Position numbers and translations under genes: made by a program
Origin: Acidimicrobiia bacterium
GTDB lineage: Bacteria; Actinomycetota; Acidimicrobiia; Spongiisociales; ZC4RG35
Length of the DNA: 64,000 bases
NCBI GenBank assembly: GCA_036374335.1
Contig: DASUUC010000085.1
Location: 1,193 to 65,192 of the forward strand
Direction: 5' to 3'
Shown here: piece after piece, positions 1 through 57,589 of the stretch
Position numbering within the stretch: position 1 is the stretch's first letter
Layout: each line of letters starts with the position of its first letter
The notes under the pieces: model-generated
Told to the model about the DNA's origin: nothing
Database searches by the model: none
Seen by the model: only the letters and a program-made list of their open reading frames with translations

Positions 1-7
1 TCGCTAT

Positions 8-1528
8 TTGATGATCTCGATTTGGGTGGGCGTGCCGTTTTTGGCTGTGGTCGGGCTCATCCTCGACAAGCCCACGTACGCCGTGGGGCTGACGTCGATT
101 GTGCTCGTTGCGCTGGCACTCGGCGGAATGACCACTGGGAACTTCGCCACCGTGGCAGTGAGCCTCGGGCTCGTCGCCGCAGCCGGGGTCGTGGTCGCCT
201 ACGCAGACGGCGCCACTGTCGCTCACTTCGCCTTTTTCGTCGCGGTCGGTGCCGTCTCCTCCTACCGACGTTCCCAGCCAATGGCCGCTGCAGTGTTCGC
301 CATCGCTATCTACCACCTCCTTACGGTTCCCGTCGGCGAGACTCTCATCCACACCGGCACCATCGCCTTCTTTGCGTTGGTTCTCATGGCAGGGTGGCGA
401 CTGACCCCGGAGGAGCCTGCCACCCCCACCACCTCCAGCGATCGTTTCCGGATCGGCTTCGAAGAGGCACCCATCGGCATGGCCGTCCTCAAACCCTCGG
501 GTGAGTTCCTCGAGGTGAACAAGGCTATGGTCGAGATCCTGGGGTATCCCCCCGAGTCTGTCCTCGCCACCAACATTTCCCGTTTCGTCCACGCCGACGA
601 CCGGGGGGAGCTGGGCCATGGCTGGGAGGAGATGGGAAACAGCTCCAGTCACAGCGCCACCAAATGGATGCGCTGGCTCACCGCAGACGGTCCACCGATA
701 TGGGCCCGTATCTCCCTGTCGTTGGTGCCGAAGACTGTGGACCAGGCGGCACTCGTCATCCTCCAACTCGAGGATGCCAGCAGTTCATATGAGGAGAAAC
801 GACGCCTGGAATCCCTGCTCGAGGGCAAGGACAGGTTCGTGGCAGCCGTGGGTGAGGAGATTCGTCGGCCACTGGGGTTGCTGATCGACCTCAGCGATCG
901 GGCCGGCCATCGGCACATCGACATGAGTGAGACGCTGCCCCGGATCGAGGCCCACGCCCGAGAGGTGGCCTCCATAGTCGACGATCTCGTCCTCTCCGCG
1001 AAGGCCGACACCATCCCCGCCCCGGTCATGGCCCACCAGCTCGATGCCGAGGTCCTGTGTCGCGACGTCGTCTCCAGGACCCAAGGTGGACAGACGATCA
1101 ACCTCGATATCAAAGCGACGAAGCTGTGGGCGGACCCCACATTGACCCGACGTATCGTCGCCAACCTGGTGAGTAACGCGATCAAGTTTGGCGGCCCGGA
1201 GGTGGGGCTGCACACCCTCACATCGGGTCCGGACACTGTCATCCAGGTGACCGACAACGGGCCCGAGATGCCGGCCCAGGAACGAGAGCGCGTTTTCAGT
1301 GGAGACCTTCGCCACGGGCAGCCCGTCACCAGACCGGCTTCGGTGGGGCTCAGCATGACCGTCGGCCGCCACCTGGCGCGGCAGATGGATGGGGACATCG
1401 AGTACCGGCGCACCGCCGATGGGCGGAATGTCTTCGAGTTGCGTCTGCCGTCCGAACCTTTCTCGGAGATTCCGAGACCGCGGCCCCCACGGGAGGTGAC
1501 CGCGTCGGCGGGGAACGGGGCTAGCTGA
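8..1528 (+). CDS. Membrane-anchored PAS-domain sensor histidine-kinase-like protein; the H-box His appears to be replaced by Glu
   Basis: 506-aa ORF. Hydrophobic N-terminal ~130 aa. PAS-like segment FRIGFEEAPIGMAVLKPSGEFLEVNKAMVEILGY. Phosphotransfer helix FVAAVGEEIRRPL where canonical kinases read SHELRTPL. HATPase_c boxes LVSNAIKFGG, VTDNGPEM, GLSMTVGRHLA. TTG at 8, ATG at 11. Confidence 0.8.
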   Translation: MMISIWVGVPFLAVVGLILDKPTYAVGLTSIVLVALALGGMTTGNFATVAVSLGLVAAAGVVVAYADGATVAHFAFFVAVGAVSSYRRSQPMAAAVFAIAIYHLLTVPVGETLIHTGTIAFFALVLMAGWRLTPEEPATPTTSSDRFRIGFEEAPIGMAVLKPSGEFLEVNKAMVEILGYPPESVLATNISRFVHADDRGELGHGWEEMGNSSSHSATKWMRWLTADGPPIWARISLSLVPKTVDQAALVILQLEDASSSYEEKRRLESLLEGKDRFVAAVGEEIRRPLGLLIDLSDRAGHRHIDMSETLPRIEAHAREVASIVDDLVLSAKADTIPAPVMAHQLDAEVLCRDVVSRTQGGQTINLDIKATKLWADPTLTRRIVANLVSNAIKFGGPEVGLHTLTSGPDTVIQVTDNGPEMPAQERERVFSGDLRHGQPVTRPASVGLSMTVGRHLARQMDGDIEYRRTADGRNVFELRLPSEPFSEIPRPRPPREVTASAGNGAS

Positions 1529-12873: not shown

Positions 12874-13415
12874 GGCAGGTATACGGCGTCGCCGCCGCTG
12901 ACCAGCCCATCGGTGATGGTGACCTCCATGGCAATCGGAGTCCCCGAAGGCACCCCATAGAGCGGCTCACCGCTGTATGTCCCCTCATAGACCTCGGCGA
13001 AGATCGGAGCATCGACCAGGATCTTCTCCGATGTATCGGATCCCGAGATCAAAGCGAATTGTGCGTCCCCAGCGACGTGTAGTAGCTCCAAGACCTGCTC
13101 GTCGTTGTCGATGTAGAAATCGTTGGGCAGGTCCTCCCCTTCGGCGATCTCTCCGTCTTCGATGGCGGCCGTCCTCGCCTCCTCGCCGGTGAGCATCTCG
13201 GCGAGGTCGATTCCCAAAGTCATCTCGCCGGTCTCGTCCTCGCCCACGGTCACGAACGCGAACCAGGTACCGTCCGCAATCGGCTGCACTTGACTGACAG
13301 TGGTCGTCGAACCGCGATTCGAACCGGCACCGGAGCAGCCGGCCACCGTCAACGTCGCTACCAGGACCGTGATGGATAGCCGTCTATTCGAGTTTCTCAA
13401 CTTGTTCCTTTTCAA
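12870..13415 (-). CDS. Putative lipoprotein
   Basis: About 181 aa from TTG 13415 (or TTG 13400). Lipobox LTVAGCSG after a hydrophobic leader. Acidic mature domain. The longer track ORF (to 13820) is Arg/Gly-rich and unlikely to be real. Confidence 0.55.
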   Translation of the reverse strand: MKRNKLRNSNRRLSITVLVATLTVAGCSGAGSNRGSTTTVSQVQPIADGTWFAFVTVGEDETGEMTLGIDLAEMLTGEEARTAAIEDGEIAEGEDLPNDFYIDNDEQVLELLHVAGDAQFALISGSDTSEKILVDAPIFAEVYEGTYSGEPLYGVPSGTPIAMEVTITDGLVSGGDAVYLP

Positions 13416-13519
13416 CAATGCACGTCGACCGCCGCCATCTTCCGAAATGCCCTCACGTGCGCAACCGCAATGAGACGTCGCAAGCCGCAAACGGTGTCCG
13501 AGGCTCGGAAGTCCCGGAC

Positions 13520-13918
13520 TTATTGGTAGTTGAGGTTGACCGACTCCCAGGAGCGGCGGATGACACAATCCACCGCCTTCAAGGCCGCCCAGAGGCCCAG
13601 AATCGAGAAACCGACCGCCAGCATCGGCGCCACGGCCACCTCTGCTTCTACGGCGAGCACCACGACAGCCATCGATGAAAGAAACGCGGCAAGGTAGACC
13701 AGGGAGTTCCGCAAGCCGTTTCTCCGGTTGTCGAGCCGCTCGATGCGTGTCTTCAGAGCGCTCAGCGATCCGGATGTGCTCTCGATAGTCACCCGCCCGC
13801 TGCGACCCCGACGCGTGCATACCCAGAGCTGGGGTGCGGCGAGCTCGATCTCATACGGTCCGGCACGCCACCGGTGATCTCTCTCGATCCAGGTGAGGCG
13901 GCTCACGTCGACCATCAT
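13520..13918 (-). CDS. Hypothetical membrane protein
   Basis: 132 aa from ATG 13918. Soluble N-terminal half, then two C-terminal TM helices (LVYLAAFLSSMAVVVLAV; MLAVGFSILGLWAALKAV). The track ORF start at 14014 lies inside repeat copy 1. Confidence 0.45.
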   Translation of the reverse strand: MMVDVSRLTWIERDHRWRAGPYEIELAAPQLWVCTRRGRSGRVTIESTSGSLSALKTRIERLDNRRNGLRNSLVYLAAFLSSMAVVVLAVEAEVAVAPMLAVGFSILGLWAALKAVDCVIRRSWESVNLNYQ

Positions 13919-13979
13919 ACCGGAGCGCCGATAACCCGTGAGCCTCCTCTCGGGGACGCCGCGGAGCTGGGCCGAGCCC

Positions 13980-14026
13980 AATGAAACGCCGAAACTCCCA
14001 TATCTGGGAGCCACAGCATTAGGAAC
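13980..14026 (-). repeat. Family-1 47-nt structured element, copy 1
   Basis: Minus-strand read: GTTCCTAATGCTGTGGCTCCCAGATATGGGAGTTTCGGCGTTTCATT. The TAA within CCTAATGC (14019-14021) is the stop codon of the upstream HEXXH gene. Confidence 0.85.
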
Positions 14027-14576
14027 CGGATCTGTCGTTGGCCCACCTGGCGAGGTCGGCCAGGGTGTCCTGGTAGGCCTCGGCGTGGCCCGTCTCTACG
14101 GCGTGGGCCACCTCGTGGAGGACGGTCCAGGCGCGGGCAGGTCGCTCGATGAGGATCGATCGGCTGGTCGGGTCGTAGACCCCACCGAGACGTCCTTCCA
14201 GGTCGTCGACGACCTGCAGCTCGACAGGCCCGATGTCCAGGTAATCGGCCGCGTCGTCGGCCAGGACGCGGGCCGCGTCATCGTCGAGGAAGGTATTGGC
14301 GAGATCGCTCATCATGAGATCGACGCCCGATTCCCGCATGGCTTCCTGGACGATGCAGTAGTCGAATCCGCATATTTCCAGTCCGTTGTCGGCGACCGGG
14401 CGGGCGACGAACACGTTGTACAGGGGGATGACCGCCATGGCGATCGCGGTAAGAGCGGCTACGGCGATCAAAAGTGGTTTGCGCCAGGGTGGAGGGGCCA
14501 GAGGCTCGAAGTCCTCTTCGGAGAGGTCCCATTCCTCGAAAAGCTCTTCTTCGTGGTGGTCGGAGTCGATCACCAC
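14019..14576 (-). CDS. Membrane-anchored protein with an HEXXH metalloprotease-like motif
   Basis: 185 aa. Acidic N-terminus, one TM helix (LLIAVAALTAIAMAVIPL), C-terminal WTVLHEVAHAVETGH. Confidence 0.6.
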   Translation of the reverse strand: MVIDSDHHEEELFEEWDLSEEDFEPLAPPPWRKPLLIAVAALTAIAMAVIPLYNVFVARPVADNGLEICGFDYCIVQEAMRESGVDLMMSDLANTFLDDDAARVLADDAADYLDIGPVELQVVDDLEGRLGGVYDPTSRSILIERPARAWTVLHEVAHAVETGHAEAYQDTLADLARWANDRSGS

Positions 14577-14618
14577 ACCGATGGTACGGGCCTTCCCAAC
14601 ACACCGAGAAGGCAGCCG

Positions 14619-15275
14619 TCAGTGCCTCACCTCGATGCCTCCGAAGAGCACCGTGGCGTCGATGCGGAGACGGGGGGCTCCATCGGGGAGGGGCTCGTTG
14701 GCAGTGGCGTTTTCGAAGCCACCGAACAACGGGAAACCGTTGATCTCTACCCGCCAACCCTCGGGAACGGCGATCTCAACCCCTCCAAAGGCGGCAAAAA
14801 CATCGAGTTCGGCGTCCGGAGCCAGCGTGGCGTGGCGGAGATCGACCTCGGCGCCTCCGAAGATCGCCCCGATGCGGCCACCTCGGAAGCTCGTCGAGTT
14901 GGAGGCGATTTCGCTACCCGAGAACAGGTTGAAGGTGTTCACCCGGTCTTCCGTAGTGCGTGATTGTGTGCCCATGCCCCTCCCAAACAGCACGAGAAGC
15001 CCGAGGATGATCAGGATGGCCGGCAACAAGACGTCGACGGTGTCGATGACACCGGTGGTTCGCAGCAGGACGAGTGCTCCGCCTCCGACGAGAATCAGGG
15101 GAACCACCCAATGACGGGGATTAGCGACGAAGGCCAGCGCCCCACCGGCGATGATCGCAGTCGGCCACCAATCCCCGATGATCTCGCCGGCGTCGAGCAC
15201 GTCGAGATTGTCCAGGAGCAAGAGCGATCCGACGGCGACGATGATGATCCCGAAGAAGGCACGTGCCCAGTTCAT
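14619..15275 (-). CDS. LiaF-like / DUF2154 cell-envelope stress-associated membrane protein
   Basis: 218 aa. Four or five N-terminal TM helices, then a C-terminal beta-rich region with repeated FGG motifs (AIFGGAEVDL, AAFGGVEIAV, PLFGGFEN, VLFGGIEV). Confidence 0.7.
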   Translation of the reverse strand: MNWARAFFGIIIVAVGSLLLLDNLDVLDAGEIIGDWWPTAIIAGGALAFVANPRHWVVPLILVGGGALVLLRTTGVIDTVDVLLPAILIILGLLVLFGRGMGTQSRTTEDRVNTFNLFSGSEIASNSTSFRGGRIGAIFGGAEVDLRHATLAPDAELDVFAAFGGVEIAVPEGWRVEINGFPLFGGFENATANEPLPDGAPRLRIDATVLFGGIEVRH

Positions 15276-15317
15276 GGTCCTCTCCTCTGAATGAAGTGCG
15301 CTGACAGTAGTGGCCGC

Positions 15318-16817
15318 TCAGCGACCGATATCGGGCTCGCTCTGCCGGGCTCGGGCCCTGATCGTGAAAACCGAATCACCCGAGAGGACCCCTCCCCTGC
15401 CGAACAAGCGGCCGAACTGCCAGTTGGACAGCCCCAGCTCCGGCCGATTGAACGCATACTGGCCGTCCACCCAGCGAGTGAAGCCGTTGCCGACGAATGG
15501 AGCGTCGATCAGGTCGAAGAACTCGTCATGCTCCTCGTGGACCTCCGAGATGAGACTGGCCGCGAACCGGGGGCTCTGCTCGTTGAACATGGCGATAGCC
15601 TCCTCTACGTCGGGCACGAGAGTGAGGGTGACCTCAGGACTGCCCTCCCATTCCCACTCCACGCCCAACTGGTCGTCGTCGATCGTCTCTGTCCGCGGCT
15701 CGGTGACGGGACCCTCGGCCCGCAGCACCGACGACGGTTCGAACCACGCGGGAGGGATGAGATGGCGGACGTTGGTCGTCACGTGGAGCTTTGCGGTCGC
15801 ACCGGTTCTCTCCCCGGCACGATGCAACGACTCGAGGAACACGGGCACCAGGTCCTCGGCACGGGATGCCACGATGCAGGTCGTGTTGAGGGTGTTGCAC
15901 ACCTTGCGGTCGAGGGAGTTGTAGACGGCAGCGGCAAACGCCCCTGGGTCGGCCGACTCGGCGGCGATCACCCAGGCACCTCCGGTTCCGTGGAGGCTCA
16001 CCGGTATCCCGGTCTGGCGAGCCACCGAGCCGAGTTGGGAGACTGCCCGCCCCGAGCCACGGGCAACCGCCAGGCCGAGCCGCGCATCGGAGAACATCGC
16101 CCAACCGGCAGCACGCGAAGGGGTGTCCACTAGCGACACGGCGCCCGTGGGCAGGCCCGCCCTTTCCAGGGCGGGTTGAAGAGCACGCGCCACGATCGCC
16201 CGGGCCGTTCCCAGCGCATCGGACCCGATCCTGAAGACCACCGTGTTCCCCGCGGCGAGCACTCCGGTAGCGTCCGCGAACACATTGGGCCGTCCCTCGA
16301 AGACGAATCCGACCACACCGAGGCCCGATCGCACCTGTTCGAGCGTCCAGCCATCATGGTCGATGGTCTCGACCACCCGGCCCCGACCGACGTCGCTGCC
16401 TGCCCACAGCCTCAGGCCGTCGATCATGCCCTGTCGCATACCGTCGCTGAGCAACAATCTGGTTGTCGAACGACCTCGCTGGCGGGCGTGCTCCACGTCG
16501 GATGCGTTCGCTTCTGCGATGGGGCCGAACGAGGCGTCGTCCTTCAAATGGTCGGCGAAGGTGTTGAAGAAGGTCTCCAGTTGGACGTCGGTCACCGATC
16601 CCATCACCGAGAACGCCTCCGATGCGGCATCGATAGCGGTCCCGGCCCGATCCCACTCGGCTTCGGGGATGTGGAGCAGGGCCCCGGTGTCCTGCACGAC
16701 GACGAGCCGATCGCCCGGCGCAAATGCTCGGGCCAACTCCTCGTCGACATGTACCACCCTGTTGCCGCCGTAGAGGATGGGCATTCCCGCTTTCAGCTCG
16801 GTCAGGGTCTCGGACAT
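15318..16817 (-). CDS. proA: Divergent glutamate-5-semialdehyde dehydrogenase (ProA)-like aldehyde dehydrogenase with an N-terminal extension
   Basis: 499 aa. ProA-like blocks GVVGFVFEGRPNVFADA, SLDRKVCNTLNT (catalytic Cys) and GNGFTRWVDGQYAFNRPELGLSN. About 60-70 extra N-terminal residues. Immediately downstream of proB. Confidence 0.65.
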   Translation of the reverse strand: MSETLTELKAGMPILYGGNRVVHVDEELARAFAPGDRLVVVQDTGALLHIPEAEWDRAGTAIDAASEAFSVMGSVTDVQLETFFNTFADHLKDDASFGPIAEANASDVEHARQRGRSTTRLLLSDGMRQGMIDGLRLWAGSDVGRGRVVETIDHDGWTLEQVRSGLGVVGFVFEGRPNVFADATGVLAAGNTVVFRIGSDALGTARAIVARALQPALERAGLPTGAVSLVDTPSRAAGWAMFSDARLGLAVARGSGRAVSQLGSVARQTGIPVSLHGTGGAWVIAAESADPGAFAAAVYNSLDRKVCNTLNTTCIVASRAEDLVPVFLESLHRAGERTGATAKLHVTTNVRHLIPPAWFEPSSVLRAEGPVTEPRTETIDDDQLGVEWEWEGSPEVTLTLVPDVEEAIAMFNEQSPRFAASLISEVHEEHDEFFDLIDAPFVGNGFTRWVDGQYAFNRPELGLSNWQFGRLFGRGGVLSGDSVFTIRARARQSEPDIGR

Positions 16818-16829
16818 CTCGTCTCGATC

Positions 16830-17927
16830 CTAAGCCAGCACGACGAGGTCGTCGCGATGGATGACCTCGCCACCAGCAACCGAGGTGTGCTCGCCCCTGA
16901 CCCGAGCTATCTCAGCTGCGGACATGGCAACCAGCCCCTTCGCGATCAAAGCGTCACCGAGTTTGACCTCCACGGCTGCACCACCGGGAAAGACACCCTC
17001 GACTTCGGTGACACCAACGGGTAGCAGTGACTTGCCCGAGTCGGTCAAGGCACGAGCCGCCCCCGGGTCTACCGATATAAACCCCTCTGACGGGGAGCCG
17101 AAGGCAATCCAGAGTTTGCGGGCGGACAGACCAGACTGGCGCGGGTCGACCCATGTGCCGACGTCATCGCCCGCGATCGACCGGGCGACCACTCGTTCGG
17201 CGGAGGCGGAGGCGATCACGGTCGGAATGCCCGAGTAAGCCGCCATGCGGGCGGCGGCCACCTTGGTGGCCACCCCACCTGAGCCAAAGCGGCCACGGCT
17301 CGAGTTCAACCTCAAGTCGTCGAGTATCTCGTCGGTGTGGCGCACCGCAGACAACAGTTCGGCGTTCTCGGTCAACCAGGGATCTCCCGAATAGATCCCA
17401 GTCGTGTCGGTGAGGAGTACGAGCATCCCGGCGCCGACGAGGTGGGACACGATGGCGGCGAGGCGGTCGTTGTCGCCAAACCTAACCTCGTCGACCACGA
17501 CGGTGTCGTTCTCGTTGACGATGGGGACCACGCCCAGGCCAAGCATCCGCTCCAATGCGGCGCGGGCGTGTAGATAGTGATCGCGGCGCGCCACGACTTC
17601 TCTCGTGATCAGCACCTGTCCTACCTGGCGTCCCAAGCTTTCGAACTCTTCGGTGTACATCGTCATGAGACGACTCTGGCCCACCGCGGCCGCTGCCTGA
17701 AGACCCGGGATGTCCACCGGACGGGCAGTCAGCCCCATCACAGGCAGCCCGGCGGCAATCGCCCCGGATGTCACGAGAACGGTGGGATGGCCCGCCGCCC
17801 AGGCGGATTCGACATTGGCGACGACACGGCGGATCGACTGTCTGTCGATTCCCGGACCTGGCCCGGACAGACTCGACGTGCCGATCTTCACCACCACTGG
17901 AGAACTGGGCTTGGCCGGCCTTCTCAT
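16830..17927 (-). CDS. proB: Glutamate 5-kinase with a C-terminal PUA domain
   Basis: 365 aa from ATG 17927 (MRRPAKPSSPVVVKIGTSSL). AAK-family motifs LVTSGAIAAG and NENDTV. PUA-like C-terminus. Confidence 0.85.
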   Translation of the reverse strand: MRRPAKPSSPVVVKIGTSSLSGPGPGIDRQSIRRVVANVESAWAAGHPTVLVTSGAIAAGLPVMGLTARPVDIPGLQAAAAVGQSRLMTMYTEEFESLGRQVGQVLITREVVARRDHYLHARAALERMLGLGVVPIVNENDTVVVDEVRFGDNDRLAAIVSHLVGAGMLVLLTDTTGIYSGDPWLTENAELLSAVRHTDEILDDLRLNSSRGRFGSGGVATKVAAARMAAYSGIPTVIASASAERVVARSIAGDDVGTWVDPRQSGLSARKLWIAFGSPSEGFISVDPGAARALTDSGKSLLPVGVTEVEGVFPGGAAVEVKLGDALIAKGLVAMSAAEIARVRGEHTSVAGGEVIHRDDLVVLA

Positions 17928-17990
17928 CGGACCGGGCACGGTAATCGCATGCCACGGCCATTCCGTGAGGTTTTCGCGCTCCGTCAGGTG

Positions 17991-18037
17991 AATGAAACGC
18001 CGCACCTCCCATATATGGGAGCCACAGCATTAGGAAC
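17991..18037 (-). repeat. Family-1 47-nt structured element, copy 2
   Basis: Minus-strand read: GTTCCTAATGCTGTGGCTCCCATATATGGGAGGTGCGGCGTTTCATT. It starts 5 nt after the TGA (18042-18044) of the permease-amidohydrolase gene. Confidence 0.85.
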
Positions 18038-18041
18038 GCGT

Positions 18042-20510
18042 TCAGATCTTGGGGACCCGGAAGCCGGACTTTTCGATGACGTGGCGGCGGGCATCGTCGG
18101 CCATGCGCATCACCGCGGGCCAGTCGACGTGGAGGAGCGTCCCGCCCCGCTTCATGACGCGGCCGGCGATGATCACGGTGTCGACGTTGCCGGTGTCCAT
18201 CCCGGCGACCACGGCTGTCACGGGATCGTTGAGCGGTGTGACATTGATCCGATCAGTGCGTAACAGGACGATGTCGGCCTGCTTCCCCGGGGTCAGGGTC
18301 CCCACCTTGTGCTCGAGGCCGTTGGCCCGGGCCCCTTCGAGAGTGGCCCAGCGCAGGACATCCCGGGTCGACACCGGTGTCTTCTCCCGAGCAGAAGCCA
18401 GTGACCTCTGCAGGGCGAGGACAGAACGCATCTGATTGAACATGTCGGAGGGGACGTTGGTCTCCACGTCGACACTGAGGCTGGGGGCGAGACCCCGGTC
18501 GAGGAACTTCTGGATCGGCGGCATTCCATGGCCCATCATCATCTCGACCGGTGAGGCGAGAGAGACTGTGCCTCCAGTGTCGACGATCATCTGGATCTCG
18601 GTGTCGTTGAGCGTCGTGCAGTGGATGTACGTCGTGTCCGACCCGAGGAGCCCCACCTCACCGAACTCCTGCACCTTCCCATCCTGGCCGTAGCTGCCCA
18701 CACCGACATGGGTGGTGATGCGGGCGCCGGTCTCCCGGGCCAGCTTCCAGTGATCACGAGACACCTCGAAGTCGGTGAACTCCGGTCCCGGGGCGGCCAA
18801 GGCGAGAGTGAGCATTTGCTCCTTCGTTGCGAAGTGCTCGGTGGCGGCGCGGACGAACCAGCTGGGCTGGCGCTCTTCCCATTTGCCCCACCAGGGGAAG
18901 CCGTATGCGAAGACGGCTCGCAGCCCGGAGTCTTCGAGAGCCTCCACCACCGCGTCGGTGTGGGCCGGCGACCCCTGGATGTGGGACCAGTCGAGCAGGG
19001 TGGTGATCCCGGCATCGATAGCCCCCAGCGCCGATATCAGGTTGCCAACGTAAGCGTCCTCCGGCCGGAAGGCCGGAGCCAACTTGTGCAGCACGAACGA
19101 GATGTAGCTGGTCCGACCCTCCAGAGGCACATCGGTGCCGATGTTGCGGAGCAGACCTTCCCAGATATGACGGTGGGTGTCGACGAACCCGGGGAGGACG
19201 ATCATCCCGGTGGCGTCGATCACTTCAGCGTCGTCCGCAGTGACATTGGGTCCCACCGAAACGATCTTGTCGGCTTCGATGAGCACATCCCCAGGTGTGA
19301 AGTCCCCCACGGCCGGATCGAGACTGATGACGGTGCCACCTTTGAGCAATCGCCGTCCGGGCTGAGGCACACTGAAGTCGACTCCTGACGGGTAGAACTC
19401 GGGGATCGCCGACTTCTCGGCGACGCGACTCCCCTGCACCAAGCGACGCACTCTTCTGAAGTTCCGCTTGACCAGCTCTTTCAGATCCCCCGCCTGGAAC
19501 AGGATGATCCCGAGGAGGACGAGGACGCCAATGATCATCGAGCCATCACTCGGGGTCAGACCAAGGAAGGGGAGCACGGTGATGATGAGAGCCAACAGCA
19601 CCGCGGCCACGCTGCTGCCGATGAACGTAGCCCGGCCCCCGGCGAGGGATGCCCCTCCGAGGACGGCCGCCGTGATGCTGTTCAGGGCGAAGGTGGAGCC
19701 GATCGACGCATTGCCGATCGGGGACCGTGCCACCACCATGAACGAGGCGGCCGCGGCCAGTAGACCGGCGAGCAGCAGGGCCCGAACTCGAACCCAGTTG
19801 GTCCCGATGCCGCCTCGCTTGGCCGACCTCTCATCAAACCCAACTGCCCGCACTGCAAGACCCGAACCAGAGGCGTGCAGCCACAGGTCGAGAAGCCCGG
19901 CACCGACGACGATCACCATGAATGTGAGGGGAATCGGTCCGACCCGGGCAGTCAAGAAAGACACGAGATCGGCGCTGATGGCCCCCTGAGCGGTGGGCCT
20001 CAAAGTCAGTGAGATCCCATCGAGGATGCTCAACGTCGCCAGCGTCGCGATGATCGAGGGGATCTTGACACCACGGATCAATCCCGCATTGACCAACCCG
20101 AGGACCAGGCCCGCGCCGAGGACGGCAGCCACACCGATGAGGATCTGTGAGAGACCGGCCTCGGCCCGGATGAGGAAAGAGGCAGCAACGACACCGAAAC
20201 TGATCATCGCCCCGACGGACAGGTCGAGGTAGCCAACCAGGATGGCGTGTGTCTGAGCAATGGCGGCGACGGCGAGCGGCATCGCCAGAATCAGGATGTT
20301 GAATATGTTCGATTCGTTCAGGAACCCCTCGAAGCGGGTGCTCGTGTACCAGAGGAGGCCTGCGATGAGCAGGATCTGGAGAGCCACCGGCATCCACAGG
20401 CGGAACCTGATCACCTTGCGCCACTTGTTCTTGTCCCGGGCGTTGCGCAGGACCTTTCGGACGAGCTGGCGAGTCGAGTCCACTCGTGTAGTTGTCAGCG
20501 GCTGGGTCAC
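18042..20510 (-). CDS. Fusion protein: CUT2-type ABC transporter permease (N-terminal ~355 aa) plus amidohydrolase (C-terminal ~430 aa)
   Basis: Uninterrupted 822-aa ORF. RbsC-like polytopic membrane region, a basic linker (KRNFRRVRRLVQGSR), then an amidohydrolase region with VLPGFVDTHRHIWEG. That region is clearly paralogous to the free amidohydrolase at 24633-25967. GTGA overlap with the ATPase stop. Confidence 0.8.
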   Translation of the reverse strand: MTQPLTTTRVDSTRQLVRKVLRNARDKNKWRKVIRFRLWMPVALQILLIAGLLWYTSTRFEGFLNESNIFNILILAMPLAVAAIAQTHAILVGYLDLSVGAMISFGVVAASFLIRAEAGLSQILIGVAAVLGAGLVLGLVNAGLIRGVKIPSIIATLATLSILDGISLTLRPTAQGAISADLVSFLTARVGPIPLTFMVIVVGAGLLDLWLHASGSGLAVRAVGFDERSAKRGGIGTNWVRVRALLLAGLLAAAASFMVVARSPIGNASIGSTFALNSITAAVLGGASLAGGRATFIGSSVAAVLLALIITVLPFLGLTPSDGSMIIGVLVLLGIILFQAGDLKELVKRNFRRVRRLVQGSRVAEKSAIPEFYPSGVDFSVPQPGRRLLKGGTVISLDPAVGDFTPGDVLIEADKIVSVGPNVTADDAEVIDATGMIVLPGFVDTHRHIWEGLLRNIGTDVPLEGRTSYISFVLHKLAPAFRPEDAYVGNLISALGAIDAGITTLLDWSHIQGSPAHTDAVVEALEDSGLRAVFAYGFPWWGKWEERQPSWFVRAATEHFATKEQMLTLALAAPGPEFTDFEVSRDHWKLARETGARITTHVGVGSYGQDGKVQEFGEVGLLGSDTTYIHCTTLNDTEIQMIVDTGGTVSLASPVEMMMGHGMPPIQKFLDRGLAPSLSVDVETNVPSDMFNQMRSVLALQRSLASAREKTPVSTRDVLRWATLEGARANGLEHKVGTLTPGKQADIVLLRTDRINVTPLNDPVTAVVAGMDTGNVDTVIIAGRVMKRGGTLLHVDWPAVMRMADDARRHVIEKSGFRVPKI

Positions 20511-30173: not shown

Positions 30174-31054
30174 CAGCTTTCCCCTCCTCTCAGGTAGACG
30201 GCGATCGCGCTTAGGTCACGATCTCCCATGCCGGAGGCGATGGCCTTCTTCACGATCTCGAGTCCTGTGCGGGCTTGCTCCATGGGAGCGCCGACCTTGT
30301 CGCCCAGCCCTGTGATCAGCTCCAGGTCCTTGGCCACCAGGTCGAGGCTGAACGCCACCACGGCATTCTCGGGGTGTTCATAGGCTTCCCGTTTGTATTG
30401 CACGAAGGGGGCACCACCGGCGCCGCCAACAAACACTTCGTAGGCCGTCTCCCTGCTCACCCCGGCTTTTTCGGCCAGGACCAGAGCCTCGGAGAGGGCC
30501 ACGTTGAGTCCGTGGACCAAGCCGTTGACGGCGAGTTTGCATGCCGCACCGGCCCCGCGATCACCGACACGGATCACCTGCTTGGAGATCGTGGCCAACA
30601 GCGGCTCGACCTGCGCTATGGCGTCTGCGTCGCCACCAGCCATGATGGTCAGGGCCCCGGCCTCGACCGTGGAGACGCTGCCAGATACCGGGCAGTCGAT
30701 GAACCGGGCGCCGTTTGTCTCCACTGCTTCGCCCACCTCGACGCTGGTCTCGGGGTCGACAGTGCTGGTATCGATAGCGATCGAGCCTGATCGGATCCCC
30801 GCGGCTATGCCTTGATCGCCGAGATAGACGTCCCGCACTGCCCGGTCATCGGCGAGGCTCGACACGACGGTCCCGGCCTCGGCGGCCGCTGCTGCCGGAG
30901 TGTCGGCTATCGCGGCGCGGGTGTCGGCGGCCACCGCCTTGGCCTTGGATCGGTCGCGGTTCCACAGCACCAGTTCGTGGCCGGTTTCGGCGAACCGCCG
31001 GGCCATGGCGCTGCCCATGCGGCCTAGGCCCACCACCGCCACATTCGGCATCAT
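30173..31054 (-). CDS. NAD(P)-dependent 3-hydroxyisobutyrate / tartronate-semialdehyde reductase family oxidoreductase
   Basis: 293 aa from ATG 31054 (GAGGAGCGAA upstream). VAVVGLGRMGSAMARRF Rossmann motif and the 6-PGDH-like C-terminal domain pattern. Confidence 0.85.
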   Translation of the reverse strand: MMPNVAVVGLGRMGSAMARRFAETGHELVLWNRDRSKAKAVAADTRAAIADTPAAAAAEAGTVVSSLADDRAVRDVYLGDQGIAAGIRSGSIAIDTSTVDPETSVEVGEAVETNGARFIDCPVSGSVSTVEAGALTIMAGGDADAIAQVEPLLATISKQVIRVGDRGAGAACKLAVNGLVHGLNVALSEALVLAEKAGVSRETAYEVFVGGAGGAPFVQYKREAYEHPENAVVAFSLDLVAKDLELITGLGDKVGAPMEQARTGLEIVKKAIASGMGDRDLSAIAVYLRGGES

Positions 31055-31098
31055 TTCGCTCCTCACTGATAAGTGACACTACACAAATCTGGCGACGT

Positions 31099-34272: not shown

Positions 34273-34611
34273 TCAAGCGAACAATTGCTCCGGCGGCTCC
34301 CGGTGAGCCGGCTCACGCGCCATGTCGACGCCGTTGACGTCGTCGACGAATTCCAACCACCAGGCGTCGTAGGCAGACTCGGGGTCCCATCCCCCTTGCT
34401 CATCCCTTGCAGACCGTAGGGGGAGATGTGGTAGACGCTCAACCCCGATGTCCGACCCGTCTCGGGCGTGGCTGACCCAGAAGACGTGACGTCTGACCCC
34501 GTAACGATCGTTGAGCGTCTCGTACTCCCCGAGATGTGGATCGAGCTCCGTGGCGAGACGGCGATACCTTTCGCTCGCCGGAACGATCGGTGTTGCACTT
34601 GCGAATAGCAT
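34273..34611 (-). CDS. Hypothetical protein (possibly a small alpha+beta barrel, EthD/mutarotase-like)
   Basis: 112-aa ORF with reasonable codon bias and no strong motif. Divergent from the amidohydrolase gene. Confidence 0.4.
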   Translation of the reverse strand: MLFASATPIVPASERYRRLATELDPHLGEYETLNDRYGVRRHVFWVSHARDGSDIGVERLPHLPLRSARDEQGGWDPESAYDAWWLEFVDDVNGVDMAREPAHREPPEQLFA

Positions 34612-34672
34612 TCAGCGACCTCTCTCTGCGAGGCTTCGATCCCATGCACAAGCCCAAGAGCATTCTCTCCAG

Positions 34673-36226
34673 ATGACCCAGGCCGACCTCGTTATAACGT
34701 CGGCCCGAATCTGGGATGGGAGCCCGCTGAGAGAAGAGGCAATCGCACTCCACGACGGAGTGGTCGCAGCCCAGGGGACCAACAGGGCGATGATGGATCT
34801 GGCCGACGAGGACACCCAGATCATCGACGTGGGCGGAAGACGGCTCATCCCCGGGCTCATCGACTCCCATCTGCACCTGGTGCGGGCCGGTCGAACCTGG
34901 GATGACGAGGTGCGATGGGACGACATCGACACCCTCGACGATGCACTGTCGGCGCTCCAGGACAAGGCCGGGGAGCTCGGCTCGGGCCGATGGATTGCGG
35001 TCATGGGAGGCTGGCACCCCAACCAACTCGAGGCACGCAGGGGACCGACCCGTGACGATCTCGACGCCAGGGTGCCGAACAATCCTGTGTTCGTCCAGCG
35101 AGCCTACGCCGAGACCGTCGTCAACAGCCGGGCGATGTCCCAAATGGGTTGGACCGAAGACGACGCACCAGGAGGAAGAGTCACTTCACCGCCCGCGATG
35201 GCCGCGCTGCGCGCCCGGGTCGCGGTCACCGACACCGAACACGCCGTGTCCGGGACCCGGCACCTCCTTCGAGAGCTGAACCGTCTCGGGCTGACCGGTG
35301 CCATCGACGCCTCCGGATTCGGCATCACAGCTGATTCTTACGACGCCTTCTTCCGGCTTTTCGCCGAGGGCGAGCGTGGCTTCCGGGCGCGCCTGTTGGT
35401 CGGCGCCGGCAACCCGGGGGCGGAGCTGGGCGACATCGAGAGATGGGTCGAATCGATCTCTCTCGACGACGGCGACGACTTCGTCCGCTATCTCGGAGCC
35501 GGGGAGGTCCTCGACTACGCCGCCCATGACATGGAGGGCCTGGCTCCCAAAGACATCACAGGTCGAGCTGCTGCTCTCCGGGAGGTGTCGGCCTATCTCG
35601 CCGGGAACGGATGGCCGGTGCATCTCCACTCCATCCTCGACTCCTCGGTTGGAGTCCTCCTCGACGCCTGGGAGGATCTGGATGCCGACATCTCCAGGCT
35701 TCGCTGGGCGATCTGTCATGCCGACCAGATCGGCCCAGAGAATCTGAGACGGGTACGTGACCTGGGTGTCGGGATCACCATTCAGAACGGGATGTCGATG
35801 CGTGGCGTCGACTGTGCCCCGACTTGGACCGATGACCAGCTGACCCAGGCTCCTCCGATGCGGACCATGCTCGGTCTCGGGATTCCGGTCGCCGCCGGCA
35901 CCGACGGCACCGTGGCTTGCGCCTACAACCCATGGCGGTGCGTCGCCTGGATGGTCACCGGAGAGTCGATCGATGGGGCTCTCTCACGGGTGGAGGCAGA
36001 GCGGCTGACTCGTGACGAGGCCCTGCGTCTCTACACCTCGGCAGGAGCCTGGTTCTCCTTCGAGGAGGACACCAGGGGCACGCTGCGTGAGGGAGCCCAC
36101 GCCGACCTGGCGGTGCTCTCCGCCGACCCGCTGACCGTCACCGAGTCGGAAATCGCACGCATCGAATCAGTACTGACGGTCGTGGGCGGGGAGGTGGTCC
36201 ACTCGTCACTCGAACCGCGTTCCTAA
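34673..36226 (+). CDS. Amidohydrolase-3 (YtcJ-like) metal-dependent hydrolase, cytoplasmic
   Basis: 517 aa from ATG 34673 (MTQADLVITSARIWDG). LIPGLIDSHLHLVRAG metal motif. Its TAA stop lies inside family-1 repeat copy 3. Confidence 0.85.
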   Translation: MTQADLVITSARIWDGSPLREEAIALHDGVVAAQGTNRAMMDLADEDTQIIDVGGRRLIPGLIDSHLHLVRAGRTWDDEVRWDDIDTLDDALSALQDKAGELGSGRWIAVMGGWHPNQLEARRGPTRDDLDARVPNNPVFVQRAYAETVVNSRAMSQMGWTEDDAPGGRVTSPPAMAALRARVAVTDTEHAVSGTRHLLRELNRLGLTGAIDASGFGITADSYDAFFRLFAEGERGFRARLLVGAGNPGAELGDIERWVESISLDDGDDFVRYLGAGEVLDYAAHDMEGLAPKDITGRAAALREVSAYLAGNGWPVHLHSILDSSVGVLLDAWEDLDADISRLRWAICHADQIGPENLRRVRDLGVGITIQNGMSMRGVDCAPTWTDDQLTQAPPMRTMLGLGIPVAAGTDGTVACAYNPWRCVAWMVTGESIDGALSRVEAERLTRDEALRLYTSAGAWFSFEEDTRGTLREGAHADLAVLSADPLTVTESEIARIESVLTVVGGEVVHSSLEPRS

Positions 36227-36265
36227 TGCTGTGGCTCCCATATTTGGGAGTTTCAGCGTTTCATT
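36219..36265 (+). repeat. Family-1 47-nt structured element, copy 3
   Basis: GTTCCTAATGCTGTGGCTCCCATATTTGGGAGTTTCAGCGTTTCATT. The TAA at 36224-36226 is the amidohydrolase stop. It sits in the 66-nt gap before ridA. Confidence 0.85.
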
Positions 36266-36292
36266 CGGGATCGAACCTGGCAGGGTGACTTC

Positions 36293-41673: not shown

Positions 41674-41893
41674 TCGTTTCCTCCTCGCGCAGCATCCGCC
41701 CTTTCGGGACGAATTGTTCAGCGACACTACACAACGTAGGTCGGTCGTGTAGTCATACTGATGAACTCATCCTCGCGGTAAACACGTTTGTCTTTGGAGA
41801 AGCTCTGAACAGTCACACTGCACAGCTCGAACGGTTTCGTATAGGTTTGACTGACACCGTGGAGCCGGTTGCAGACCAAGAGGAGAAGGCGCG

Positions 41894-54447: not shown

Positions 54448-54488
54448 TGCGGTGAAGGTTTACCAGTTACCGGGCAGTCCGTCAATAC

Positions 54489-54533
54489 GTTCCTAATGCT
54501 GTGGCTCCCATATATGGGAGCCACAGCGTTTCA
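54489..54533. repeat. Family-1 structured element, copy 4 (full-palindrome variant)
   Basis: GTTCCTAATGCTGTGGCTCCCATATATGGGAGCCACAGCGTTTCA. GCTGTGGCTCCCATAT/ATATGGGAGCCACAGC is a perfect 32-nt palindrome. It lies between the LLM oxidoreductase stop (54683) and the trp leader. Confidence 0.85.
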
Positions 54534-54682
54534 AAAGACCGGACTCCCCTACGAGGTGTGATGGTTGCGACGGCGTCATCAGCCGATGTTGCTCGTTCCA
54601 AGGACGGGGCCGGGCGTCCCAAGGATCTGCGAACCCTTCCGCCATGTATACCCCATCTCCAACGGCTGAAGGAAGAAGACCG

Positions 54683-55723
54683 CTAGCCCGTTGTCTCGTT
54701 GACGATCGGAGCCACCTTTGTTCCCAATAGTTCGATACTGCGCAACACCTTGTCATGGGGCATGGTGCCCACGCTCACGTGCAACTCGAAGCGGTTGACA
54801 CCCAGCAGCTCCTTGAATCGGAGGATCTTCGCCGCCACCGTCTCAGGGTCACCGAGAACGAGGGAGCCTTCAGGCGACCGCATCCAGTCGAACTGCTCTT
54901 TGGTCATCGGGCCCCAGCCTCGCTCTCGACCGAGACGTGTCATCGCCGCCGCATAGGAGGCGTAGTACTCCTCAGCGGCCTGCTCGTTGTTGTCCGAGAC
55001 GTAGCCGTGGGCATGGACCGATAGCGGCACCTCCTCACGGTCGTATCCCGACTCCTGAAGGGTGCGGCGGAACAGCTCGGCGAGAGGGGTGAACCGATCG
55101 GGGGCACCGCCGATGATGGCCAGGGCCACCGCCAGACCGCGAGTAGCGGCGCGCACGATCGACTGGGGTGTCCCGCCGACGGCGACACGTATCGGTAGCT
55201 CACGCTCCGGCCTGGGATAGATGCCCTGACCTTTGATCGGGGACCGGAACTGTCCCGACCAGTTGATTTCGTCTTCGCTGTCGCGGATCTGGATGAGTAG
55301 GTCGAGCTTCTCGGCGAACAGCTCGTTGTAGTCGTCGAGGTTGTACCCGAACAGGGGAAAGGACTCGATGAACGATCCTCGACCCACCAGTAACTCGGCA
55401 CGTCCTGACGACACGAGATCCAATGTCGAGTACTGCTGAAACACTCGGACCGGGTCGTCGGTGCTGAGAATCGACACGGCTGGGAAGAGACGGATCTTCG
55501 ACGTCCGCCCGGCGGCAGCGGCGAGGACTACAGCGGGTGCCGAGGAGGCGAAATCCGGTCGATGATGCTCCCCGAGCCCGTACACGTCGAGACCGACCGA
55601 CTCGGCCGCTTCGACTTCTTCGAGGATCTGGCGGAGTCGTTCCCCGTGGCTGACAGGAGGTTCGCCACCGTGGGAGGGGATGGTCTCGGCGAAGCTGGTG
55701 ATTCCTAATTCCATGTTCATCAA
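54683..55723 (-). CDS. LLM-class (luciferase-like) flavin-dependent oxidoreductase
   Basis: 346 aa. MELGITSFAET ... HHRPDFASSAPAVVLAAAAGRT is typical of the luciferase-like monooxygenase family. Confidence 0.85.
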   Translation of the reverse strand: MMNMELGITSFAETIPSHGGEPPVSHGERLRQILEEVEAAESVGLDVYGLGEHHRPDFASSAPAVVLAAAAGRTSKIRLFPAVSILSTDDPVRVFQQYSTLDLVSSGRAELLVGRGSFIESFPLFGYNLDDYNELFAEKLDLLIQIRDSEDEINWSGQFRSPIKGQGIYPRPERELPIRVAVGGTPQSIVRAATRGLAVALAIIGGAPDRFTPLAELFRRTLQESGYDREEVPLSVHAHGYVSDNNEQAAEEYYASYAAAMTRLGRERGWGPMTKEQFDWMRSPEGSLVLGDPETVAAKILRFKELLGVNRFELHVSVGTMPHDKVLRSIELLGTKVAPIVNETTG

Positions 55724-57046: not shown

Positions 57047-57589
57047 CTAATCCAAAGAGTCGTCTGCGCCGCGCCTGATACGTGTTATAGCTGAGCGCAG
57101 CTTGTCGAGACAACGTGCTCTGGTGGGCCCGAGACTTCCGATGGGGCGCCCGATGGCCTCCGAGATCTCCTCGTAGCTGAGGGCAGGCTCGATGGTCATC
57201 AGCCTGAGCAACTGCTGACAGACTTCGTCGAGCGCACTGAACGCCTGGACGACGAAACGATGCTCCTCGTCGTCGACCAGGATTTCGTCCAGAGAAGGGC
57301 TCGGGTCTTCCACGTCGTATTGGAACTCGGTTGGCACGTCCCGCTCCTGCGCCCGGGAGACGCGCATCGCTTCCCGCCGACTCGTCGTGGCCAGCCAACC
57401 AGGGAGACGCTCGGGGTCGTTGATGGAATCAACGTTCTCGATGAGTCTGAGCCACACGGTCTGGGCGACATCCTTGGCGGTGGCATCGTCGAGACGGAAA
57501 CCCCGGGCGACCGACCAAACCATTTGACCGAATCTGTCCACGAGGGCATCCCAGGCGCTCTGTTCGCCGCCGGCGGCAAGGGTGAGCAA
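57047..57589 (-). CDS. ECF-type sigma-70 family RNA polymerase sigma factor
   Basis: 180 aa from TTG 57589. Region 2 (DALVDRFGQMVWSVARGFRLDDATAKDVAQTVWLRL) and region 4 (LSYEEISEAIGRPIGSLGPTRARCLDKLR). Confidence 0.85.
   Translation of the reverse strand: MLTLAAGGEQSAWDALVDRFGQMVWSVARGFRLDDATAKDVAQTVWLRLIENVDSINDPERLPGWLATTSRREAMRVSRAQERDVPTEFQYDVEDPSPSLDEILVDDEEHRFVVQAFSALDEVCQQLLRLMTIEPALSYEEISEAIGRPIGSLGPTRARCLDKLRSAITRIRRGADDSLD

Follow-up and report, generated by a model that had tools for sequence, protein, structure and literature searches.

REP-like dispersed palindromic repeats at gene ends in an Acidimicrobiia species cluster and their candidate partner, a winged-helix DUF559 nuclease

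Introduction

Few non-coding features of bacterial genomes are as common as repeats of the REP type and, to our knowledge, RAYT is the sole enzyme family that has been tied to them. In the actinobacteria, the repeats at gene ends include the mycobacterial MIRU and the TRIT terminator motif, which overlap stop codons or lie as conserved 3′ hairpins between convergent genes, MIRU being made up of tandem units with small ORFs. The repeat described here, Family-1, has the same placement at gene ends and no sequence similarity to either; we know of neither MIRU nor TRIT bracketing a cognate nuclease gene.

In several respects Family-1 resembles the REP/REPIN-RAYT systems (Nunvar, 2010, PMC2817692; Bertels and Rainey, 2011, PMC3116915): the repeats are short hairpins found at the 3′ ends of genes with copy numbers above 100, target duplication is absent, inverted doublets are present, a single-copy enzyme gene lies between two inverted copies, and several gene/repeat pairs can share a genome. 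It differs in that its likely partner, judged from sequence, is a nuclease with a winged helix (wHTH) and a Vsr-fold (DUF559) domain, not a RAYT with its Y1 HUH transposase domain. It also lacks an unpaired GTAG tag, its unit, at 54 nt, is longer and includes an invariant arm of 10 nt, and the core has been rewritten in concert while the sites stayed fixed. The CGTC-tagged REPs (Di Nocera et al., 2013; PMC3733652) are likewise palindromes downstream of genes and have no known dedicated transposase; these families, mostly of Alphaproteobacteria, have stems of 8-9 bp starting with A/T pairs, loops of 4-5 nt, and CCA tails. Family-1 also carries a CGTC string, at positions 39-42 in 65 out of 106 copies, but this is not the conserved part of the unit, and Family-1, with a stem of 13-16 bp and a loop of 6 nt, lacks the CCA tail.

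In the literature searched, no published description was found of a pairing between wHTH-DUF559 nucleases and palindromes; the nearest mention is in a table of PMC9881135, one row of which gives DUF559 as a predicted inversion target. Family-1 is read here, with a probability of roughly 0.6, as a REP-like palindrome dispersed through the genomes of one Acidimicrobiia species cluster and as the solo form of the repeats that bracket a wHTH-DUF559 nuclease gene.

Sequences analysed

The window is a stretch of 64,000 nt (C85:1193-65192, C with a number denoting a contig) in the genome of a soil member of the Acidimicrobiia, a 3.68-Mb assembly of 126 contigs with 63 % G+C that is 93.9 % complete and is labelled G000. 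Gene positions were obtained with a crude in-house gene caller, followed by a frame-by-frame test, and every genome used is a metagenome-assembled genome (MAG).

Copies in the window and in the genome

A first-pass annotation of the window had marked an element of about 47 nt at four sites, with the consensus GTTCCTAATGCTGTGGCTCCCATATATGGGAG-N5-GCGTTTCA and with non-palindromic flanks that made it more than a generic hairpin. All four copies are present at those sites and on those strands (Table 1), each with 0-1 mismatch to the 32-nt core, for which 100 shuffles give an expectation of 0, and the consensus is correct. The length is not, since the information content sets the conserved unit at about 54 nt, from -5 to +49 counted from the G of GTTCC. 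The repeat is also not restricted to the four sites. A pattern search found 116 copies (60 + 56) in the genome, with 0 for the same pattern written backwards, and a profile search found 121 loci, all with a clear orientation. Family-1 is a structured repeat found genome-wide, with conserved non-palindromic flanks.

Table 1. Coordinates of Family-1 copies and related features, with the layout of the conserved unit
Feature	Position	First-pass span	Strand	Loci	Remarks
Family-1 copy 1	13978..14031	13980-14026 (47 nt)	-		Element positions -5 to +49
HEXXH-motif protein gene	14019..14576		-		185 aa, HEVAH motif; end codons GGT TCC TAA within copy 1
Family-1 copy 2	17989..18042	17991-18037	-
Family-1 copy 3	36214..36267	36219-36265	+
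Family-1 copy 4	54484..54537	54489-54533	+		Perfect 30-bp palindrome
Family-1 unit	Element positions 1-11				GTTCCTAATGC
Family-1 unit	Element positions 12-21				TGTGGCTCCC
Family-1 unit	Element positions 22-27				Loop ATATAT
Family-1 unit	Element positions 28-37				GGGAG + 5 variable bases
Family-1 unit	Element positions 38-49				GCGTYTCRTTCG
Family B	C15:42358/43386			3	Brackets DUF559 paralogue
Family C	C87:92918/93916			11	Brackets DUF559 paralogue
Family D	Gene C9:25827-26765 in C9:25677-26838			At least 54	CGCGAACCCAGGGTTCCAGACACCGCTCAGCGAAGTCCAGCGCCCTSGGTTCG; brackets wHTH-DUF559 paralogue

The unit is made up of an invariant 5′ arm of 10 nt, TTCCTAATGC, a hairpin of 13-16 bp whose loop is A/T, and a 3′ arm of looser sequence, GCGTYTCRTTCG; the margin at -5 to -1 (A-N-C-S-S) is weakly conserved. 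The internal GTGG, proposed as a REP-type head, falls at stem positions 13-16, is paired with 33-36, and changes at a near-neutral rate, so that the invariant head of the unit is instead TTCCTAATGC. As to catalogued RNAs, no family of Rfam 15 matches the element: there are no matches at the gathering threshold over the window, and at E<=1 the region around copy 1 (13900-14100) gives noise only (E 0.24-0.62, far under the gathering score).

The stop codon of the HEXXH gene is the TAA of copy 1 (14019-14021), as had been noted. In 13 congeners the orthologues of this gene have a C-terminus 6-10 residues past a conserved W, and in the window 7 residues follow it; given this similar length, copy 1 lies at the native stop and the protein has no large truncation. 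The TAA of copy 3 (36224-36226) is the stop of a 571-aa gene (34511-36226). Copy 2 begins at the final base of the TGA stop (18042-18044) of a gene for an 822-aa permease-amidohydrolase, this TGA being 4 nt ahead of the GTTCC. Copy 4 is antisense within a minus-strand tandem intergenic region, 139 nt past the stop of the gene at 54683-55723(-). The window also contains three copies of a direct repeat of about 33 nt (31054-31086, 41702-41734, and 41793-41825) with the 3′ end CACTACACAA; this repeat has no relation to Family-1 and is possibly a shared regulatory motif.

Some copies depart from the single unit. There are inverted doublets at C47:2787-2902 (copies at 2787 and 2848) and C80:35303-35431 (35303 and 35377), with the TTCCTAATGC arms outward and 6-50 nt between the copies; the spacer of the C80 doublet is a small GACCCCGGGTC...GACCCGGGGTC palindrome. 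Genomes G013 and G010 likewise have inverted doublets with outward TTCCTAATGC arms, about 105 nt from start to start. These doublets have the geometry of the nuclease cassette described below minus its gene, like REPINs or empty cassettes. The copy at C4:74687-74790 contains a partial internal duplication (41 nt) of the 3′ half that is missing from a sister contig, and the copies at C81:7881 and C64:2768 have 23-38 nt inserted at the junction of hairpin and arm; these are instances of decay at single loci.

Position relative to genes

A coding-like ORF in the sense orientation ends at the left end of 83 out of 121 copies. Its stop lies between -13 and +6 of that end in 79 out of 121, against 3.3 % for random intergenic placement (P~1e-85), which bears out the enrichment just after stop codons that the first-pass annotation had put forward for checking. 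The element's own TAA, at positions 6-8, is the gene stop in 28 copies, the donation seen at the HEXXH gene being one of these; in a further 20 the stop is at -6, and in 10 it is at -7. General co-orientation with the upstream gene, also suggested there, does not hold, as antisense genes end at the right end of 57 copies. Nineteen antisense stops lie within the 3′ half, 13 on the complement of TCA at 43-45 and six on the complement of 33-35. Taken together, the sense and antisense positions indicate that Family-1 has inward-facing stop codons on both strands.

The repeat is intergenic in 112 of the 121 copies. Flanking-gene context was assigned for 109 copies and is convergent in 45, tandem-sense in 28, tandem-antisense in 26, and divergent in 10; the repeat therefore favours convergent and tandem regions and avoids divergent (promoter-side) ones. 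The orientation of the copies has no relation to GC skew or to the local gene strand. Among high-scoring copies with the stop at -6, this stop is TAA in nine out of 19, compared with 7.7 % of stops genome-wide. A role for the element TAA as an in-frame back-up stop is not general, as the stops at -6 are out of frame with it and those at -7 are in frame. Integron attC, promoter, and anti-Shine-Dalgarno readings were dropped after inspection of the sequence.

Hairpin structure

Counted over positions 9-22 of the stem, G.U cells number 254 and A.C cells 21, and the comparison of orthologous copies shows 90 single pair-preserving and 16 double compensatory changes in the stem. The RNA of copies 1-3 folds at -22 to -28 kcal/mol on the forward strand and at -12 to -17 kcal/mol on the reverse: -27.9 (z -3.7) and -13.3 (z -0.3) for copy 1, -21.9 and -12.4 for copy 2, and -26.7 (z -4.9) on the forward strand for copy 3. 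Copy 4 folds on either strand (-30.0 and -28.9 kcal/mol). Both the excess of G.U and the forward-strand folding indicate that selection acts on the forward strand in single-stranded form. The content of G.U has no relation to transcriptional context, copies whose forward strand is the mRNA strand being no different from the others, and this asymmetry irrespective of mRNA strand is left unexplained by a reading as RNA. Since the forward strand folds with G.U pairs, it is probable that the repeat also forms a 3′-end RNA hairpin where it is transcribed. Copies 1 and 2 were not flagged in a scan for terminators by consensus criteria over 13000-19000; there is no clear U-tract, the tail being at best GUUUCAUUC.

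When extruded, the hairpin would have a T9.G40 mismatch that is nearly invariant (100 of 104 copies). The substrate of the very-short-patch endonuclease Vsr is a T.G mismatch, and the catalytic domain of the candidate partner nuclease is Vsr-like.

Nuclease genes bracketed by palindromes

Outside the window, a single-copy gene for a nuclease of 305 aa (C65:57655-58572) lies between inverted Family-1 copies at 57478(+) and 58522(-), whose TTCCTAATGC arms point outward. The right copy encodes the last 17 codons and the TAG stop of this gene, and its TAA is in turn the stop of the convergent neighbour gene. The gene is one of four DUF559 genes in the genome, all of which combine AbiEi_4 (winged-helix) with DUF559, a catalytic domain of the Vsr-like PD-(D/E)xK group (Pfam PF04480/PF18741). 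Each of the four paralogues is bracketed by its own palindrome family, of 121, 3, 11, and at least 54 copies as counted by blastn-short. The copies of family D often occur as tandem pairs about 70 nt apart.

The C65 nuclease is under purifying selection (dN/dS ~0.2) and diverges faster than its neighbours (85 % amino acid identity, compared with 94-96 %). The catalytic-type residues E196, D228, E239, D241, H246, D255, and R258 are the same in all 28 homologues. By contrast with the REP/RAYT analogy first drawn for the element, PF01797 (Y1_Tnp/RAYT) has no match in the whole genome, whereas six out of 14 control genomes match.

Homologues of the nuclease are present in all congeners but one, at 2-8 per genome. 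The five closest orthologues, from five congeners at 57-67 % identity, have the same bracket geometry and share TTCCTAATGC, with hairpin cores that are species-specific. The cassettes of the congeners are not syntenic with the G000 locus; the nuclease cassette has moved. On a tree of 28 homologues the motif of the flanking repeats requires seven changes, compared with 18.1 in shuffles, none of 200 shuffles being as low, and clades A, C, and E each form a monophyletic group (clade A at 99/100). Throughout the genus, then, the outer arm of the repeat and the nuclease clade vary together.

In a test set out beforehand, all six genomes with a clade-A gene have 19-105 copies of TTCCTAATGC, and 13 of the 16 without it have six or fewer, with 0-6 for controls (Fisher P=0.001). 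The three others, G013, G021, and G007 (98 % complete), have 25, 22, and 11 copies respectively without a clade-A nuclease, from which it follows that the repeats can persist in its absence. The association between the clade-A gene and TTCCTAATGC is strong and not absolute. Greater likeness among the copies in gene-bearing genomes had been predicted beforehand; the homogeneity of the core is 0.50-0.81 with the gene and 0.53-0.68 without, ranges that overlap. In G001 the TTCCTAATGC arm is joined to two core types, one the genome's own GCGCCACATATGGCGC and the other, in three copies, the GGGACGGTAT type of G008, which suggests exchange between lineages or retained ancestral variants.

Age of the sites and replacement of the core

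Sister populations were represented by 120 contigs from five JGI metagenome data sets, syntenic with G000 and 83-93 % identical to it. Among testable elements, 109 out of 111 in the sister populations are at sites also occupied in G000, as are 66 out of 74 in the reverse direction. The divergence of these populations is dS 0.37-0.49, and the insertions at the shared sites are therefore older than this divergence. With almost no insertion polymorphism against the sister populations, present-day mobility gains no support. One apparent virgin target (C72:4949 compared with L070/L123) was rejected, as both arms are kept and it looks like a deletion of the hairpin between TGC microrepeats. For a comparison with empty sites the congeners are too distant (57-67 % amino acid identity).

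In 99 orthologous pairs with these sister populations, positions 2-12, 17-21, 24-25, and 27-32 differ in 0-6 pairs. Near-neutral values, with differences in 19-36 pairs, are seen for the left margin, for the outer stem at 13-16 and 33-37, and for positions 23 and 26 of the loop. It follows that arm and apical stem are kept fixed at each Family-1 locus. The apical 16-bp palindrome is nearly invariant inside the species cluster; in the congeners it is replaced wholesale and the asymmetric arm is kept.

Replacement can be followed site by site in G017, from which 28 repeat-bearing regions were taken, about 24 of them mapping onto syntenic G000 DNA. At 7-8 of these ~24 sites, where chance would give about one, the repeat is at the same gene end as a G000 copy, with the same orientation and distance from the stop. 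The arms at these shared sites are common to both genomes and the core is wholly G017-type in one and G000-type in the other. As the core differs even at orthologous sites, it evolves in concert, and since point mutation could not produce this at many sites in parallel, either copy-to-copy conversion or replacement within the arms is needed. At C65:77309-77326 and C62:17936-17987, G000 has family D where G017 has a TTCCTAATGC-type repeat (L209, L223); repeat families seem to succeed each other at the same gene ends.

Five copies are present in the congener G020 (DASUUP01, Acidimicrobiia SMAG_U1792) on contigs 88-94 % identical to G000 (L001-L004), compared with 62 % protein identity for a G020 housekeeping orthologue. 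It is probable that these contigs are mis-binned from a G000-like population, and that G020 is not a second host species.

Discussion

The likely partner of Family-1, the wHTH-DUF559 nuclease, would recognise the conserved TTCCTAATGC arm and cut within or beside the hairpin. Templated repair from other copies would then keep the repeats alike and rewrite the core in concert, and the same repair might now and then seed new copies. Survival at gene 3′ ends can be attributed to the stop codons that face inward on either strand (TAA at 6-8; on the other strand, the complements of TCA at 43-45 and of TTA/TCA at 33-35), through which the unit can adjoin a gene's last codons or take their place; because it can replace end codons, copy 1 supplies the stop of the HEXXH gene. 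A tentative extension, rather unlikely in its full form, is that the Acidimicrobiia have a second, RAYT-independent class of repeat system in which a wHTH/Vsr-fold nuclease would read a 10-nt arm (here TTCCTAATGC), nick the hairpin in its extruded form, possibly at the conserved T.G mismatch, and drive the conversion of about 100 fixed-site hairpins, with several such pairs per genome. Such a nuclease would differ from a homing endonuclease, as its gene does not spread into Family-1 sites.

It is also conceivable, although unlikely, that Family-1 is mainly a host RNA element, a 3′-end hairpin stopping or stabilising transcripts, and that the nuclease is an unrelated selfish or homing-type gene using the repeats as a safe landing site, making the bracket arrangement a consequence and not a cause. 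The strong forward-strand folding, the tolerance of G.U, the compensatory changes, and the location directly after stop codons all suit such a role, as does sequence constraint at each locus over dS~0.4. Persistence of the repeats in gene-less genomes and the overlap in core homogeneity between gene-bearing and gene-less genomes would also be accommodated, and IS elements are known to target REPs (PMC1525189). However, about one-third of the copies have no sense gene at the left end, many are antisense to the sole adjoining gene, and the G.U bias is no different in either of these contexts. The terminator criteria miss the copies for want of a clear U-tract, a homing gene should occupy several of the 121 sites and is found in one, and a host RNA element leaves unexplained both the genome-wide rewriting of the core behind a fixed arm and the way in which the arm tracks the nuclease clade.

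Very unlikely is an origin as a MITE of a DDE-type insertion sequence, or a function as an array of duplex binding sites at which a dimeric regulator or nucleoid protein reads CTCCCATATATGGGAG. An imperfect palindrome with partly inverted ends would be compatible with such readings, as would the near-invariance of the apical 16-bp palindrome in the species cluster. As to a MITE, there is no target-site duplication, no k-mer of k=2-6 rising meaningfully over the permuted expectation for any combination of boundaries, and the only longer unit found with Family-1 ends is the nuclease cassette. The palindrome is also swapped wholesale in congeners that retain the asymmetric arm; the asymmetry between G.U and A.C suggests a single-stranded form, and divergent regions hold few of the copies. 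A classical REP or REPIN mobilised by RAYT (Y1 HUH), with the gene unassembled or recently lost, is hardly credible: its size, copy number, and extragenic 3′-end location, the absence of target duplication, the inverted doublets, and a strand-asymmetric hairpin, as for single-strand transposition, would all suit, but PF01797 is absent from a nearly complete genome when controls match, the unpaired GTAG tag is absent and GTGG varies and is paired, stem and loop differ in size from those of published GTAG or CGTC families (PMC3733652), and the gene bracketed by repeats in six species is that of a DUF559 nuclease.

For the favoured reading of Family-1 as the solo form of nuclease-bracketing repeats, there are consequences for how the genomes of these bacteria are annotated. 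In Acidimicrobiia MAGs dozens of genes stop on a codon donated by a repeat, and contigs with repeats can be prone to mis-binning. Whole groups of dispersed palindromes, the CGTC REPs among them, have no known partner. The four nuclease/repeat pairs, the arm that follows the nuclease phylogeny, and the replacement of the core offer a testable candidate for a second mechanism by which dispersed palindromes may be made and homogenised.
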